A stretch of DNA of 40,468 bases, from positions 1 to 40,468 of the forward strand of contig JAWOHE010000064.1 of the NCBI GenBank assembly GCA_046485285.1, given 5' to 3'. Made by a program: the position numbers. The DNA is from a bacterium (lineage in GTDB: Bacteria; Hydrothermota; Tepidihabitantia; Tepidihabitantales; Tepidihabitantaceae). How positions within the stretch are numbered: position 1 is the stretch's first letter; each line of letters begins with the position of its first letter. Positions 22,201 through 28,200 of this stretch are shown here, in pieces.

Positions 22201-25200
22201 GTCGATGCCGGCCGGGCATTCGGTTATGCACCGGCCGCAGCCGACGCAGAGCACCGGCGGCCAAAGGCCGCCGGAAGCCCCGGCGTCTTCGACGCCGGGG
22301 GAAGACGGAGGTTCCTTTGCTCCCGGAAGGGCTTCCGGCGCGAAGCGCCGGGGGAAGTACAGGAACTTATGGAGGGTGCGGTTGCGCAGGCGGTCGCGGC
22401 CGGTCGGCCGCGGGTTGTGGCCGGAGGCGTGGCGGGTGAAGAGCGCGAACTGGCAGGAGTCCCAGGTCCGGATGCGCGCGCCGGCGCCGTGGCGCTCCTC
22501 GTCGGTCACGTCGAAGCAGTGGCAGGTCGGGCAGATGAAGGTGCAGACCCCGCAGTTGACGCAGGGCCGGGCGAGCCTGTTCCAGACTTCGTGGTCGAAC
22601 GCGCCGGCGAGCTTTGCGCCGAGCGCGGCAATGTCGAGTGCGAAGGTCATCTTCGCCCGGGCGGCCGCCGCTCGGCGGTCGGCCTCGGCGAGGTCGGCCG
22701 CGCCTGCCTCCTTGAGTCCGTCGGTCAGCTTCGCGCCCCGGTCGGTCAGCGGCCGGCAGAGCCAGCGGTCACCCGCGTCCTCGAGCAGGAGGTCGAGCGC
22801 CCGGGTGCCGTGCGGGTCGCCGCCGACCGCGGTGCAGAAGCAGGCCTCGCCCGGCTCGTCGCAGGCGAGCCCGACGATGGCGGTCCGCTCGCGGCGGAGG
22901 CGGTAGTAGGGGTCGTCGAACCCGGGCGCCTCGCCTTCTTTCCCGGCGAGGAACACCCGGTCGAAGAGCTCGAGCGCGGCCGCGTCGCAGGGCCGGACGC
23001 CGAATACGACCCGGTTGGGGACCTCGCCCGGCTCCTCGGCGCGGCCGCGGTCGCCGGCCTTGAACCGGAACAGCACCTCGCGCTGGGGGAAGAACAGCTC
23101 CTTGACCGGGAGCCTGGTGTTGAGGCAGTCGAGGCGGACCTGCCCGGCCCCGGTCACCGGGCCGAAACGGCAGGCGTCGGTGCCGGGCATCCGGACCGGC
23201 GCCCAGACCTCGCCTGCCTTCGCCAGCGCGGCGATAAAGCCGGCGAGGTCCTTCTTCGGCAGCAGGCGCGGGGTCACCGGATAAACTCCTGGCCGTCTTC
23301 GGGCTTGAAGGTCGCCAGCGGCAACGGGTCGTCGAGGCTCATCCCGGAGACGTGGCCGAAGCGCTCGCGGACGATGGCGGCGACCTTGCGGTTGATGAGC
23401 ATCAGGTCGATGCCCATCGGGCAGGCGCGGGCGCAGGCGCCGCACTCGACGCACCGGCCGGCCATGTGCATCGCCCGGACGAGATGGAAGATGATATTGT
23501 CGGACAGGTCCGGGGTCCGGCCGACCCATTGGGGCCGGTCCGCGTCGACGAAGCAGGTCGGGCAGTAGCAGTTCGGGCAGACCTGGCGGCAGGCGTAGCA
23601 GCGGATGCAGCGGCCGAGCTCGGCGGCCAGGAACTCCCAGCGCTCGGCCGGGCTCCTTGATTCAAACTCGGCCTGGGCCGGGTCGCCGGCGGGCGCGGTC
23701 GCCGCGGCCCGGTCGCCGACGCTCTGCGTCCCCGCAGGTGTTCCTACAAACTCGTCGAACAGCACCGCGTCCGCGACCCCGGACGCCGACTCGGCCGGGT
23801 CGCTGACGCCGATGATGTGGAGTTTCTCGCGGTCGAACTGGTTCTCCTTGAGCAGGTTGACGATCGAGCGCGAGGTCGGGCCGGTCGCGATGACCGTCAC
23901 CCGGCCCTGGCGGCGGAGGCCGGGAAGCCAGGCCGCGAGGTTCTGGCGGCAGTCGGCGTCGAGCGTCAGTCTGTCGCAGTCGTCCGGCCGGGTTATGAAC
24001 GCGGGCACGGCGGTGCCGGGCCGGTGGCCGGCGCGGTAGCCGAGGACGATGTCGGTCCGGCCGCCGGCGAGCAGTTCCCGGCAGCGGGCGCGCAGTTCCG
24101 CGACCGCGCTCACCCGGACGCCTCCACGGCCGCGCGGCTCGCGGCCAGCCGGTTGGACGGGCCGAGCCGGCGGACGTTCTCGGTGGCCTCGCGGACGACC
24201 TCGGCGAAGCGCTCGCCTTCCGCGGCCGAAACCCACGAGAAGGTCACCCGGCCCGGCTCGATGCCGAAGAACTCGAGCAGGTCGGCAAGGACCGCGAACC
24301 GGCGGCGGGCGACGTAGTTGCCGGTCAGGTAATGGCAGTCGCCGGGGTGACAGCCGGAGACGAGCACGCCGTCCGCGCCGTGCTGGAGCGCCTTGAGGAT
24401 GTAGAACGGGTCGACCCGGCCCGAGCAGGGGACCCGGATGACGCGGATCGAGGGTGGGTACTGGATGCGCGAGATGCCGGCCAGGTCCGCGCCGGCGTAT
24501 GAGCACCAGTTACACAGGAACGCGACGATGCGGGGCTGGAAATCGGTCGAGCCAGGTTCAGACATTTGTGAGCGGCGATTATATATGAGCAACCCGGGCC
24601 TGTCCACCCGGCGCTGCGCGCCGGGAGTCGGTTCCGGAATTCCTGAGGAGCTCTTTCCCTTCCCGCGCCGGCGGGCCACCCGCGCGCCGCTGTTGACCGC
24701 GGCCCGGCGTTCGCTAGACTATCCGAGGCGCAGTCAAGAACTCATAAGGAGGCCGTTCGATGAAGAAGCTGTTATCGGTGCTCGCCCTCGCGCTGCTCGC
24801 CGGCGGCGTGATGGCGTGGCCGGGCCCGGGCACGCCCGCGCCCGACTTCACCGCGCAGGACACCGCCTGGCAGAACCACACCCTGAGTGAGCTCCGGGGC
24901 AAGGTCGTCCTGCTGAACTTCTGGCAGTCGACTTGACCGGTCTGTCGCGCGGAGTTGCCGCGCTTACAGGATATGTACGACGAATACGGCGACCGCGGCT
25001 TCGTGCCGGTCACCATCAACCTCTGGCAGGAAATGTCGGTCGTCATCGCCTACGCCAGCCAGTATACCTACCCATTCTGGCGTGACGGGTCGGGCGCGAT
25101 CTGGAACCTCTACAAGATCGACAGCTACATCCCGCTCAACTACGTCATCGACACCGCCGGGGTCGTGGTCAACGGAACCGAGGGGTTCCCGGAGTCCACC

Positions 25201-28200
25201 ATCCGGTCCTGGATCGAGAGCGCGCTGCCCCAGGTCGGGGTCGAGGAGCAGTCGCCTGCCCTCGCGCGCATCGAGGGCGTCCGGCCGAGCCCGGCGCGCG
25301 GGCCAGCGACGGTCCGGCTGGCGCTGCCGCACGCGGGCCGCGTCTCGGTCCGGGTCTGGTCGAGCGCGGGCCGGCTGGTCAACGAGGTCTTCGCGGGCGA
25401 GCTCGCGGCCGGTTCGAGCGAGTTCACCTGGCGGCTGGGTGACGGGAGCGGTTCCCGCGTGCCGGCCGGGACCTACTTCGTCGAGCTCAATGCCGCCGGG
25501 CAGGTGAGCCGGACGAAGCTGTCGGTCCTCGACTAGCCGCTCGACGCAGTATCTTCACCGGGGGCCTTTGCGGCCCCCGGTGGTTTCACACCGCGGGCCG
25601 GGCCTCACCAGCGGGGAGCGGGCCGCGGCGCGGCAGGCCCTACCGCACCAGGACCAGCCGGGCCGACACGCCCTGAAGGTACATCTCCTGTAAGGTCAGC
25701 AGAAACGCCTGCTCGCTGCGCTGGTAGCGATCGAACAGCCGGGTCCGGTAGCCGCCGCTCCGCTCGGTCGGCACCGACAGCGCCAGTTCGCCCAGCCGGG
25801 TCCGCAGCTTCCGCGGCCGGTGCCCGCTCCGGTACCCGCGCCGGCTCCCGGCCCGCTCGTAGCGTCCGGCGCCAAGGTAGTCACGCAGCTCGCTCTCCAG
25901 CAGCTCCTGCAGCCATCGCCGCACCACCTCCTTGAGCACTTCCGGGTCATCCAGTAGAAACCCTTGTCCGGGCGCCCCGGCTGTGTTACTATCGGTCATT
26001 CTTCTTGTGGCCATTCGAGCTTTTCTTTCGATCATAACTGACGCCACATTCTCATCGGAATGCGGCACGGCTCAATGGCCACTCTCTCTTTGCCAATTTG
26101 CAGACATTACGGCACGCAACTTCGTCGCCCGGGTCTATTGCGCGTCCCACCCCCACCCGCACTCCCGGAGTTACTCCCCCAGTAACTCCCGGAGTAAACC
26201 CCCCAGTAACCCCCGGAGTAACCCCCGGAGTAACACCGGGAGTAACCCCGGGAGTTACTCCCGGAGTAACCCCCGGAGTTACTGGGGGAGTAATACCGGG
26301 TATGGGGGAGGGGGTAAATTCGAAGCCCAATGAAGTTCTGGTTTTTCAACCAATTGCGACGATTTCCCGATTGGCCGAGTCGTTAGTTTCTACTAATATA
26401 GGCCAGGAATGGTGATGCGAAGGCGGTTGGCTATGGCCCGGGGGAGACGGTTGCGCTGGGCGCGGCGTTGTGCGGGTTGCGGCTTCGGGCCGGGCTGAGC
26501 CTGGTCGAGCTGGCGCACCTGATGGGACGGAGGCCGGGCCTCTACCCGCACCTCAGCCGGCTTGAGCACGGCCGGGTGGGGCGCCCGACGCTGGGGCTGA
26601 TTGCCGGGCGGCGTTCGGGAGCTGGTGCCGGTGCTGGACCGGTACGTCGCGGGCGGTACGGGAGGACCGAATCCTCGTGACTGCGAGAGCCGGGCGCGGC
26701 GAGCGCGCAATCGGTTGAGTTGGAGAGGCGCGGGCTGGTTTCGGTCGCGGCGGAGTGACGATTCGGCGCTGGCTTTCCCGGCCGGCGGCATCTGACAGGC
26801 GAGGGAATACGGTGGCGCGGCGAGCGAATCACGCACCAGGGCGCGAGGTCGAGGGAGGGGGCATCTCCGCTTGACGGCTGCCCGGGTGAGGTCAGGAGAT
26901 GTCCGGGAAGCGCCGGGGCAGGGCCGGGCCGGCTTGACTTGCCCCGGCGCCCTATTACACTTCCTGTCCGATGTTGATGGCCGGAGTGTTGCTGTTGGCG
27001 GCATTGCCGGTGCAGGGGAGCCTCGAACTGACCCTGGACCAGGCAGTGTACGCCGCCGAGGGCGCAACCCGGCAGTTGGACGTCAGCTACGAGATTCCCC
27101 ACGCTTCGCTGGCCTTCCTCAGGGTCGATTCCGGGTTCGCGGCGCGGTTCCGGGTCGGGATCGACCTGCTCGACGGCCGGGGCAACCCGGTGGCGGGCGA
27201 TTTCGCGGACCGGCGGGTGGAGGTCGCCGACTACGACGAGACCGTGAGCCGGACCGCGAGCATCGTCGGGACCTTGTCGGTAGCGGTGCCGGCCGGGGCG
27301 GGCGAGGCGTTGGTGCAGGTCTCCGACCTCGGGAGCGAGCGGCGGGCAAGGGCCCGGTTCCGGCTCGGCGACGGCGGGAGCGGGCTCAGGCTGGTGTTCC
27401 TGAAGTCGGGCGAGCCGAACCCGGCCCGGGCGTACGCGCCCGAGGACACGCTCGAGGTGCGGGCCGAGGTGCTGGACCAGGCCCGGCCGGACAGCGTCCG
27501 GTTCGCGGTGCGCGACGGGCGGCGGCCGATACTGGGCCGGGCCGTCGCGGTCGAGGATTCGGGGGGGCGGTTCCGGGCCCGGCTGGTCGAGCCGCTGGCC
27601 GATTCGAGCGGCGCGCCGGCGTTCCCGGGCGGTGAGTACCGGCTCGAGGCGGCCGGGGTCGGCGGAACGGCCGAGCTGCGGGCGCAGGCCGGGTTCAGAT
27701 TCATGGTGCCGTTCTTCCTCGACGAGACCGCCTGGCGGAACCGGGTCGACCGGCTGGTCTGGGTCGCGACGGTCGAGCAGATGCGGGAGCTGCGCGGGCT
27801 CGCCGCGGAGGAGCGCGAGCCGGCCTGGCGCGAGTTCTGGCAGAAGCTCGACCCGAGCCCGACGACCGGGCACAACGAGCGCGAGGTGCAGTATTTCGAG
27901 CGCATCGAATACGCCGAGGAGCATTTCGGCCGGGGCGACCGCGGCTACCGGAGCGACCGGGCCCGCGTCTACGTGACGCTGGGCGCGCCGGACCAGGTTG
28001 ACGCCCGGCCGTTCGAGCTGGATTCATACGCATACGAGGTCTGGAACTACTATTCGCTGGGGCTCGAGTTCGTGTTCGCGGACCGTTACGGGTTCGGCGA
28101 GTACGTGATGGAGAGCCCGAGGAGCTGGCGTGAACGTTAGACTACTGACCGTGCTGGCGGCCGGGGCGGTGGCCCTGGCCGGTGCCGCGCCGCGCCTGGC

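Follow-up and report, generated by a model that had tools for sequence, protein, structure and literature searches.

The locus at 24760..25536 (+ strand) of the window, the whole 40,468-nucleotide stretch analysed (contig C7), raises the question of how a single in-frame TGA at 24934-24936 is read and where the resulting protein acts. Translated with TGA as U, the gene encodes 258 aa followed by a TAG stop and comprises a signal peptide, a ResA/TlpA-like thioredoxin domain and a sorting domain, with FWQST-U-PVC as the read-through motif. The Pfam families AhpC-TSA (77 bits), Redoxin (58 bits) and FlgD_ig (37 bits) were each matched above cut-off, and the full-length matches in relatives also contain one TGA. 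A promoter-like site, TTGACC-16 nt-TAGACT (24693..24720, +), was obtained as a pattern match in a consensus scan that gave two sites, with 0.0 expected in shuffles. Inspection of the sequence revealed a Shine-Dalgarno-like AAGGAGG (24746..24752, +) with the ATG 7 nt downstream and, 20 nt past the stop, a GC-rich hairpin, CACCGGGGGCC-TTTGC-GGCCCCCGGTG (25556..25582, +). The latter is a possible terminator, which was not called by the terminator scan because it has no T run. No cytochrome c maturation context was found in the neighbourhood.

Judged from its sequence and that of its relatives, this is a genuine selenoprotein gene in which UGA 24934 is decoded as selenocysteine (U59). Codon statistics give a positive score for the stretches before and after the TGA. 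Among the relatives' copies that span the site (40-74% identity) the TGA was retained in 29 of 32, these being kin and hence not independent events; the initial annotation had counted 31 of 34. Three copies lack the TGA, and the two that were read, in genomes G017 and G018, both have TGC, i.e. Cys, in the same column. G017 is without SelA, as had been reported before.

A SECIS-like hairpin, GCGCGG-AGUUG-CCGCGC (24947..24963, +), lies 13 nt downstream of the UGA, its loop starting 20 nt from the U of UGA. It was found in all 18 UGA copies, and among these its stem covaries (CGC...CGC in seven, CUC...CGA in eleven), a G-C pair being compensated by U-A. In both Cys copies the hairpin is degraded through synonymous changes; the Leu codon in the loop, UUG or UUA in 18/18 UGA copies, is CUG in both of them. 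The AGUUG loop also occurs in the SelD gene. Hairpins of the same kind follow 4.2% of the 50,113 TGAs genome-wide, as against 10 of the 11 genes tested from the validated set, by a rule drawn up with the candidates already seen. The stability of the 71-nt fold around the UGA was not above that of shuffles (z = -0.5). The selenocysteine machinery is all present in the genome: SelA (C3:501-1844), SelB (C37:10662-12542), SelD with a single TGA of its own (C37:9674-10585) and tRNA-Sec (C49:6554-6648). The hairpin at 24947-24963 would be SelB's target in decoding the UGA.

The AlphaFold model of the product has a mean pLDDT of 91.9, with low values at residues 1-20. Residues 1-19 (MKKLLSVLALALLAGGVMA; 24760..24816, +) were scored heuristically as a signal peptide, with cleavage likely after VMA. 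The thioredoxin-fold domain, placed by the model and the structure match at residues about 21-158 (24820..25233, +), has B. subtilis ResA as its best PDB match (TM 0.91, rmsd 1.5 Å over 137 residues). A HMMER alignment to the ResA variant chain 3c71 brought its first Cys, second Cys, Glu and Pro onto U59, C62, E65 and P125, the Glu being six residues past the first Cys in ResA. By this alignment the exposed N-terminal nucleophilic Cys of the CxxC is replaced by Sec (U59-P-V-C62), while the ResA-type Glu (E65) and cis-Pro (P125) are kept. The product fell below the ResA model's cut-off of 170 bits, with a score of 74. Relatives of the same order have plain, tail-less Cys forms of 161-177 aa (one of 142 aa).

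The C-terminal beta-sandwich, residues about 170-258 (25267..25533, +), consists of seven strands with pLDDT 95-97 and resembles a T9SS (type IX secretion system) type A sorting domain. It passes FlgD_ig (36.6 bits, cut-off 27) and falls short of TIGR04183 (19.8 bits, cut-off 23), which only 2 of 13 selenoprotein tails reach; a sorting profile derived from 181 other genes of this genome matched it with E = 1e-23. Truncated homologs in public records are titled 'T9SS type A sorting domain-containing protein [candidate division WOR-3 bacterium]'. Of the 1,999 genes called, 191 have the same tail, in every case at the very C-terminus, and both PorU-like proteins are among them. One of these is encoded directly before a PorV/PorQ-family gene (the pair at C96:13225-18291); it contains Peptidase_C25 (191 bits) and reaches 361 bits against NF033707 (cut-off 420), and the second, on C28, is also below that cut-off. 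The PorU-like proteins are below threshold, as the initial annotation said, but the predicted export route has more behind it than was supposed there: the adjoining PorV/PorQ-family gene reaches 146 bits (cut-off 90). Similarly, SprA is indeed absent from this assembly, but the search is no longer one with silent controls: SprA was above cut-off in 30/30 same-family genomes, and the gap fits the 88% completeness of the assembly. GldM was again not found (0/31 genomes, controls silent), a search for GldK returned FGE-sulfatase paralogs only, and the motor and ring were not found.

We suggest the following route. With its signal peptide the protein would cross the inner membrane by way of the Sec translocon, and the C-terminal beta-sandwich would be recognised by the type IX system, in which SprA is the translocon, PorV the shuttle and PorU the sortase; this system would carry the folded protein over the outer membrane for release or tethering to the cell surface. 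Exchange between the selenol/thiol pair and disulfides, selenylsulfides or polysulfides may take place there. Reductases of the ResA type are supplied by inner-membrane CcdA/DsbD. One CcdA-like gene is present in the genome (C68:8119-8745), but its product could not reach a protein at the surface.

The gene is a member of a lineage-wide set. Selenocysteine genes were screened for by codon statistics flanking each TGA, by a hairpin-first pass and by homology, none of which selected on signal peptides. The screens gave 17 candidates besides SelD, and 15 were kept. The other two, C68:4395 (39/39 relatives' copies without the stop, the three that were read having TGG) and C37:211 (TGG in a paralog at 88% identity), were rejected as TGG-to-TGA cases on account of the TGG in these relatives and paralog. 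The 15 validated genes form seven families: ResA-like and Omp28-like (both thioredoxin-like), CBM-like jelly-roll, BNR propeller, FG-GAP propeller and two unknown folds. Two ResA-like UxxC proteins had been claimed, and the second was confirmed at C37:3281-4639, with the motif FWTST-U-PTC. Among relatives' copies spanning the site, the TGA was conserved in 78/80 for Family A, 55/62 for BNR and 28/29 for FG-GAP; the corresponding values were 23/23 for the Omp28-like C60:9879 (at least 46% identity), 11/11 for C48 (at least 40%), 10/10 for C101 and 18/18 for C60:16903 (at least 38%).

All 15 passed a home-made signal-peptide heuristic, as do 525 of 1,916 genes, and 13 have the C-terminal sorting domain; C87:9651 and C60:16903 are lipoprotein-like and lack it. 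The profile from the 181 non-selenoprotein genes matched 13/13 of the tails (E 3e-26 to 3e-15), and the domain occurs in 13/15 selenoproteins as against 182/1,979 of the remaining genes (Fisher p = 4.5e-12; counting SelD as well, 2.2e-11), close to the earlier estimate of about 180/1,957 (p = 4e-11). Fifteen of the 16 selenoproteins found are therefore predicted to be exported, 13 of them sharing the same tail, and SelD alone is cytoplasmic. This agrees with the initial annotation in its picture of a selenoproteome dominated by exported, tailed proteins and nearly in its tally (12 + 1 + SelD then, 13 + 2 + SelD now); its own screens had favoured genes with signal peptides, and those used here did not select on them. 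Counted by family, export is predicted for all seven, and every family includes a tailed member. The sensitivity of the screens on random in-gene positions was 59-65% for coding only and 89% for the lenient version, and one to three cytoplasmic selenoproteins could be hidden; the 12% of the genome that is missing is also missing from the selenoproteome count. No FdhA-type or other cytoplasmic TGA genes were found in the genome screens.

We consider it likely that the product is a ResA/TlpA/CcmG-type thiol-disulfide oxidoreductase that contains selenocysteine and is exported through a type IX system. It could instead be a TlpA/ResA-type reductase of the classical periplasmic kind, which leaves the cytoplasm by its signal peptide, resides in the periplasm (or acts there before secretion) and is reduced by the CcdA-like membrane protein, with the Ig-like tail as an anchoring or interaction module and not a secretion signal. 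The fold match to ResA, the retained E65 and cis-Pro, the CcdA/DsbD_TM gene, the passing of FlgD_ig but not of TIGR04183 and the missing GldM would suit such a protein, but we regard it as unlikely: the same tail ends nearly two hundred genes, both PorU-like proteins among them, a porU-porV pair is present, SprA is found throughout the lineage, and the tail-less Cys forms of the same order would occupy the classical periplasmic role.

It seems quite improbable that the protein is a selenium-dependent, peroxiredoxin-like thiol peroxidase shielding the envelope or surface from peroxides. AhpC-TSA is the top Pfam match, there are weak matches to GSHPx and PrxU, and Sec-peroxiredoxins are on record (PMC13188914); however, the motif is the thioredoxin-type NFW..UxxC and not the peroxiredoxin PxxxTxxU given in that source, and the top 15 structural matches are all thiol-disulfide oxidoreductases including ResA, an alkyl hydroperoxide reductase appearing first at rank 49. 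We give hardly any credence to a reading in which translation really stops at the TGA, or the TGA marks a pseudogene or a mistake in the assembly, with the exported enrichment produced by screening bias and paralogy. Two coding-screen candidates did prove to be TGG-to-TGA cases, the 15 genes are only seven families, sensitivity was 59-89% and the genome is incomplete. Against this, 15 genera retain the TGA, the hairpin that follows it covaries, two copies have Cys instead, signal peptides were not used in the screens, the family-wise count is 7/7, and cytoplasmic TGA genes such as FdhA did not turn up.

The preferred reading, a surface-directed selenocysteine oxidoreductase, leaves a hypothetical role in which the two ResA-like proteins could keep the other Sec sites reduced; such a surface reductase would be without an obvious electron donor. 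The pattern in this WOR-3 bacterium, where export signals and type IX tails mark nearly all selenoproteins, is unmentioned in the selenoprotein papers searched. The earlier claim of novelty holds for the link between selenoproteins and the type IX tail, absent from the literature searched together with CBM-like, BNR-propeller and FG-GAP selenoproteins, and has to be narrowed otherwise: UxxC TlpA-like selenoproteins and an Omp28-related one are already catalogued (NCBIfam; 2026 review table, PMC13188914).

The product is like B. subtilis ResA and the TlpA/CcmG/DsbE family in fold, NFW..CxxC layout, Glu, cis-Pro and extracytoplasmic site, and differs from them in having Sec for the first Cys. 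Where ResA has a membrane anchor it has a cleavable signal peptide, and it carries a further domain for sorting at its C-terminus. The catalogued Sec TlpA/redoxin-type proteins (NF041054; PMC13188914, Table 1) also have U first in the redox motif, but the product reaches only 37 bits against NF041054 (cut-off 300), and nothing is said in the searched text of PMC13188914 about T9SS, a signal peptide or a secretion tail in these families. Porphyromonas gingivalis HBP35, a T9SS cargo with a thioredoxin-like motif, is described as joining a thioredoxin-like redox domain to a conserved C-terminal domain by which the Por/T9SS system secretes it and attaches it to the surface (PMC2907840, PMC3120885). 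The likeness drawn is one of domain make-up, and HBP35 differs in its Cys, its hemin binding and its origin in Bacteroidota; no selenoprotein version of it is mentioned in the literature searched. Precedents for extracytoplasmic selenoproteins are NF045500 ('hypothetical protein GOS_C'), listed as a UxxC relative of Omp28-type outer-membrane lipoproteins (PMC13188914) and matched below its cut-off of 200 bits by C60:9879 (47 bits) and C60:16903 (15 bits), and SaoB and SaoX, substrate-binding (lipo)proteins that carry signal sequences (Haft preprint, 10.1101/2022.07.06.499078). They are single families in selenoproteomes that are otherwise cytoplasmic, whereas here 15 of 16 selenoproteins are predicted to be exported.

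The gene at positions 24760-25536 of contig C7 (plus strand; C-numbers denote contigs of this WOR-3 genome) starts with ATG preceded by AAGGAGG and contains a single in-frame TGA at 24934. Reading this codon as selenocysteine (Sec, U59) gives a protein of 258 residues that begins MKKLLSVLALALLAGGVMA, ends GTYFVELNAAGQVSRTKLSVLD and carries between them the motif NFWQST-U-PVC-RAE. Pfam AhpC-TSA (77 bits), Redoxin (58) and Thioredoxin_8 (42) matched residues 23-141, spanning the TGA, and FlgD_ig matched residues 182-246 (36.6 bits, cut-off 27). The top NCBIfam match was ResA NF002854 with 74 bits, below its cut-off of 170, and NF047696 gave 42 bits (cut-off 230); the protein lies below the cut-offs of both curated ResA/TlpA models and is related to ResA/TlpA without being an equivalog. 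For the tail, the T9SS type A sorting domain model TIGR04183 gave 19.8 bits (cut-off 23, passed by two sister selenoproteins) and PF18962 gave 14.5 bits (cut-off 27); the genome's own tail profile matched with E = 1e-23. The N-terminus passed a home-made hydrophobicity rule, which 27% of the genes also pass.

The gene is isolated, with a divergent MvhD/FlpD and Fe-S gene cluster on one side and a truncated Mutator-family transposase on the other. A promoter-like site lies upstream at 24693-24720 (plus strand), and a terminator scan at the gene called none. The cluster (20132-24679, minus strand) consists of a T2SSE-type ATPase, then an NAD-binding/Fe-S protein, two 4Fe-4S dicluster proteins and the MvhD/FlpD protein, and forms an electron-transfer cluster of the Hdr/Mvh-like kind with Cys instead of Sec. 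The transposase (25640-26068, minus strand) has 142 aa, which match positions 19-120 of the 379 in the profile; next comes a short stretch of Pro-Gly-Val-Thr repeats at 26050-26420, and GWxTD-domain proteins are found at 26971-29431.

Several observations bear on the decoding of the TGA. The codon log-odds in the 40 codons on either side were +17.4 and +18.5, so that coding sequence is present on both sides, and the Pfam domain runs across the codon. In the genome (2.34 Mb, 102 contigs, 88% complete, G+C about 70%), SelA, SelB and SelD were found above curated cut-offs, together with tRNA-Sec; the SelD gene carries a TGA of its own, and the stem after it has the same AGUUG loop as that of the C7 gene. 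When 40 relatives were searched, the single TGA was kept in 29 of the 32 same-family copies of the ResA-like gene that span the site, a count that leaves out three frames of 660-695 aa with the TGA and one of 252 aa without it. We read 20 copies at this column, not including locus L063 of a relative: 18 have UGA and two have UGC, giving FWQSTCPYC in genome G017 and FWQSTCGHC in genome G018. The hairpin of the C7 gene, a 6-bp GC stem with an AGUUG loop from nt 20, recurs as C[G/U]CGCGG-AGUU[G/A]-CCGCG[C/A] in all 18 UGA copies; its outer pair covaries (G-C in 7, U-A in 11), and the loop always encodes Leu as UUG or UUA. Both Cys copies also encode A-E-L-P, but by way of GAA/CUG/CCC or CUG/CCA codons, so the stem is broken and the hairpin is lost in two of two. 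No SelA was found in G017, which is 92% complete. A search of Rfam with 201 bases around the TGA gave no SECIS family even at E = 10, and the fold of the 71 nt 3' of the TGA was no more stable than that of shuffled sequences (z = -0.5); it is only the short local hairpin, not the fold of the whole region, that is informative at this site. Public databases contain two full-length stop-free homologs of the protein (P0005 and P0011), and relatives of the same order outside the family have plain frames that are stop-free and tail-less, 161-177 aa long except for one of 142 aa.

An AlphaFold model built from a 45-row alignment (mean pLDDT 91.9) shows a thioredoxin fold with the central insert of the ResA/TlpA/CcmG family at about 21-158 and, after a short linker, a beta-sandwich of seven strands at 170-258. 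In a PDB structure search, B. subtilis ResA chains took ranks 1-10 with target-normalised TM of 0.86-0.91, the best match having an rmsd of 1.5 A over 137 residues at TM 0.91. In the HMMER alignment to the ResA variant chain 3c71, U59 and C62 line up with the first and second Cys, E65 lines up with the Glu six residues after the first, and P125 with the cis-Pro; Sec would therefore take the place of the exposed nucleophile in a ResA-type site. Two other assignments were considered. The known ResA-like WAxxUGC selenoprotein (NF041054, WAxxUGC_long) scored 37.3 bits against a cut-off of 300, and the motif here is WQSTUPVC. A peroxiredoxin could be suspected from the AhpC-TSA match above cut-off, yet the peroxidatic motif PxxxTxxC/U, as given in PMC13188914, is absent, and the site NFWQSTUPVC is of the thioredoxin type. 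By sequence and fold, the gene is best described as encoding a putative ResA-like oxidoreductase that contains Sec and ends in a type IX-style tail.

The rest of the selenoproteome was sought by screens that were blind to signal peptides, with a codon log-odds model trained on 469 long ORFs. Requiring 40 stop-free codons on both sides of a TGA left 46 of 9,016 rows, 20 codons left 38, a hairpin-first screen gave 13 and a lenient read-through list 127; stop-start junctions made up most of the 46, 38 and 127 rows. Screen sensitivity was 59%, 65% and 89% on 4,830 random in-gene positions, and a small number of cytoplasmic Sec genes may have escaped the screens, as may anything that lies in the missing 12% of the genome. 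The genes at C87:9651 and C30:24994 came in through homology searches. Fifteen selenoprotein genes other than SelD were kept, each family being checked in 30 same-family genomes, and we give for each the relatives' copies with TGA over the copies that span the site. Besides the ResA-like pair (C7:24934 and C37:4453), there are the CBM-like jelly-roll family, here family A (C6:9672, C13:972, C44:22864, C44:23849, C58:1779 and C87:9651; 78/80), BNR or F510_1955-like propellers (C49:20541 and C30:24994; 55/62) and an FG-GAP protein (C90:13067; 28/29). Two Omp28-like genes (C60:9879, 23/23 at 46% identity or above; C60:16903, 18/18 at 38% or above) and two of unknown fold (C48:10464, 11/11 at 40% or above, with 14 more distant copies stop-free; C101:52158, 10/10) complete the set. 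No FdhA-type selenoprotein gene was found in the genome.

Not every TGA that looked promising was accepted as Sec. The TGA at 4395 in C68:3691-4512 (ACPVG-TGA-LVED) passed the coding screens; 39 of 39 relatives are stop-free there, the three that were read have TGG, and the hairpin is absent. At the contig end C37:2-511, a YVTN propeller gene has a TGA at 211 that is TGG in the 88%-identical paralog C102:2-508 and TGA in no relative. Neither is taken for Sec: both lie in otherwise intact genes for exported proteins, and each looks like a recent nonsense mutation, a variant within the population or an assembly error at a repeated gene. In C41:6054 and C25:7985 the downstream gene has a signal-peptide start of its own, which makes the TGA a true stop. 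C93:24776 has a hairpin match in a frame that looks antisense, and C12:1325 is without a hairpin and weakly coding in the gap. We also noticed that over its final 78 bases (40390-40467, minus strand) the window is a 100% match to residues 145-170 of the YVTN-propeller gene with which C37 ends; several contig ends carry a repeated gene family, which probably breaks the assembly.

A simple signal-peptide rule was passed by all 15 selenoproteins and by 525 of 1,916 genes. A tail profile made from 181 non-selenoprotein genes matched 13 of the 15 (E from 3e-26 to 3e-15), and the other two, C87:9651 and C60:16903, have lipoprotein-like N-termini. The tail is thus found in 13/15 selenoproteins and 182/1,979 other genes (Fisher p = 4.5e-12, or 2.2e-11 with SelD included), although the selenoprotein genes in this test are not independent of each other. 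All seven families are predicted to be exported, with one or more tailed members in each. The initial annotation had described a selenoproteome dominated by tailed and exported proteins (12 tailed and one lipoprotein-type), and this is borne out with the corrected counts of 13 tailed and two lipoprotein-like; its concern was that screens favouring signal peptides and GGU hairpins might bias the proportion, and the present screens, which ignore signal peptides, gave 15 of 15 signal-like. The same T9SS-like tail ends about 191 of the 1,999 called genes (9.6%), and by this count the predicted secretome is very large for a 2.3-Mb genome.

Components of the type IX machinery were searched for in the same genome. 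A PorU-like gene (C96:13225-17088; NF033707 361 bits against 420, Peptidase_C25 191 bits) encodes a tail of its own, the next gene belongs to the PorV/PorQ family (C96:17161-18291; NF033709 146 bits, cut-off 90), and a second PorU-like gene is at C28:1397-5293. SprA was not found in the assembly with SprA_N (PF14349), SprA (TIGR04189) or tblastn with a 1,413-aa SprA piece of a relative. The earlier observation, made with silent controls, that SprA is missing from the assembly stands. In relatives of the same family SprA passed its cut-off in each of 30 genomes, in frames of about 1,850-1,900 aa, including three of three of the same genus. The relatives serve as a positive control, and their sequences argue for a translocon in the lineage. 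For GldM, none of the 31 genomes gave a match and the controls were silent; GldK matches were only FGE-sulfatase-domain paralogs on C15. Export of the C7 protein by the type IX route is probable on these matches. There is one CcdA-like gene in the genome. A little upstream of the porU- and porV-like pair, C96:9005-11818 encodes a 937-aa protein with Peptidase_MA_2, PD40/TolB-like propeller repeats and a C-terminal Omp85 barrel, which might have a part in outer-membrane cargo handling.

In family A, the domain model is a jelly-roll (pLDDT 85), with weak and generic structure matches (E from 2e-8 to about 1e-5) to CBM11, CBM22 and CBM61; a sugar-binding domain of Fbs1 and a phage tailspike domain were other weak matches. 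All 17 aligned copies have the Sec, which lies in the loop that leads into the last strand. Pairing in the hairpin GGCG[A/G]-AGGUCU-[U/C]CGCC is kept in 17 of 17, and the variable pair is A-U or G-C (for example at C6:9672 and at the relatives' loci L069-L079), so that the protein reads AKVF or AEVS; the occurrence of Lys with Phe and of Glu with Ser after Sec is an amino-acid covariation due to RNA pairing. A library of 1.84 billion protein representatives gave 369 matches to the family. Among the best 150 of these (P0122-P0271), 77 have their C-terminus at the Sec column, 16 continue beyond it and 57 are fragments or shorter; one of ten aligned run-on homologs has Cys at the column. At least 53 of the 77 finish in Cys, that is, in a C-U pair, and therefore vicinal Cys-Sec, as in C87:9651, is the commoner form outside this genome. 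The two BNR genes, C49:20541 and C30:24994, have in common a distinct downstream element, GAGCUCUUCAGGAGC, with the stem GCUC/GAGC, which falls outside the GGU/AGU loop rule and is kept in both paralogs, whose proteins are 35% identical. In the SelA-negative genome G017, which keeps the Cys ResA-like gene and is 92% complete, no match to family A, BNR or FG-GAP was found; in the absence of Sec decoding these three families seem to be lost, not converted to Cys.

Some of these proteins have described counterparts. The table of a 2026 review (PMC13188914) includes NF045500 as well as UxxC selenoproteins of the TlpA-like (cd02966), Prx-like and Redoxin types, and NCBIfam names NF045500 'Omp28-related selenoprotein' and NF041054 'ResA-like WAxxUGC'; exported Sao selenoproteins are described in the Haft preprint (10.1101/2022.07.06.499078). 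Five of the seven families (jelly-roll, BNR, FG-GAP and two of unknown fold) are not thioredoxin-like and have no counterpart in the review's table as far as it is accessible. The main texts of the review, deep-Sep and BSepDB hold nothing relevant on secretion, signal peptide, periplasm or sorting domain, and in that of the review the terms glycos-, propeller, carbohydrate, sialidase and VCBS do not occur, a statement for the main text from which the supplementary family lists might differ. In the literature searched, no relevant paper joins selenoproteins with type IX secretion, the one paper that names both being an unrelated study of rabbit diet, and none joins WOR-3 with type IX secretion; selenocysteine and WOR-3 met only in a Lost City metagenome study, with one mention of selenocysteine.

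The data allow a tentative reading, to which we give somewhat less than an even chance: an entire family within WOR-3 would run an extracellular selenoproteome of at least seven families via type IX, five of them new to the review table, with Sec in surface loops, the ResA-like pair as surface partners, and Sec seemingly needed. The loop Sec, often as C-U, U-C or G-U-G, would serve as an exposed group that is reactive or binds metal or sulfur, in contrast to a redox centre of the classical cytoplasmic kind, and the two ResA-like UxxC proteins may be the matching surface redox partners. The initial annotation proposed this pair as possible reductants of the other Sec sites. If confirmed, this would add several selenoprotein families, establish an extracellular use of Sec on scaffolds of the carbohydrate-binding-like and propeller kinds, provide testable cases for Sec over Cys where cellular repair is absent, and widen the range of type IX cargo and machinery (SprA, PorU, PorV) to include WOR-3. 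Public annotation ends these genes at the TGA and labels the remainder a sorting-domain protein; with 77 of the best 150 family A relatives ending at the Sec column, the pattern is invisible in current databases.

Bacterial selenoproteomes are described as consisting mostly of cytoplasmic redox enzymes. The selenoproteome described here is unlike these: the FdhA type is absent, 15 of the 16 Sec residues lie in predicted exported proteins, mostly with a type IX tail, and the genes are publicly cut at the TGA. According to PMC2907840 and PMC3120885, P. gingivalis HBP35 is a T9SS cargo with a thioredoxin motif in the Cys form.
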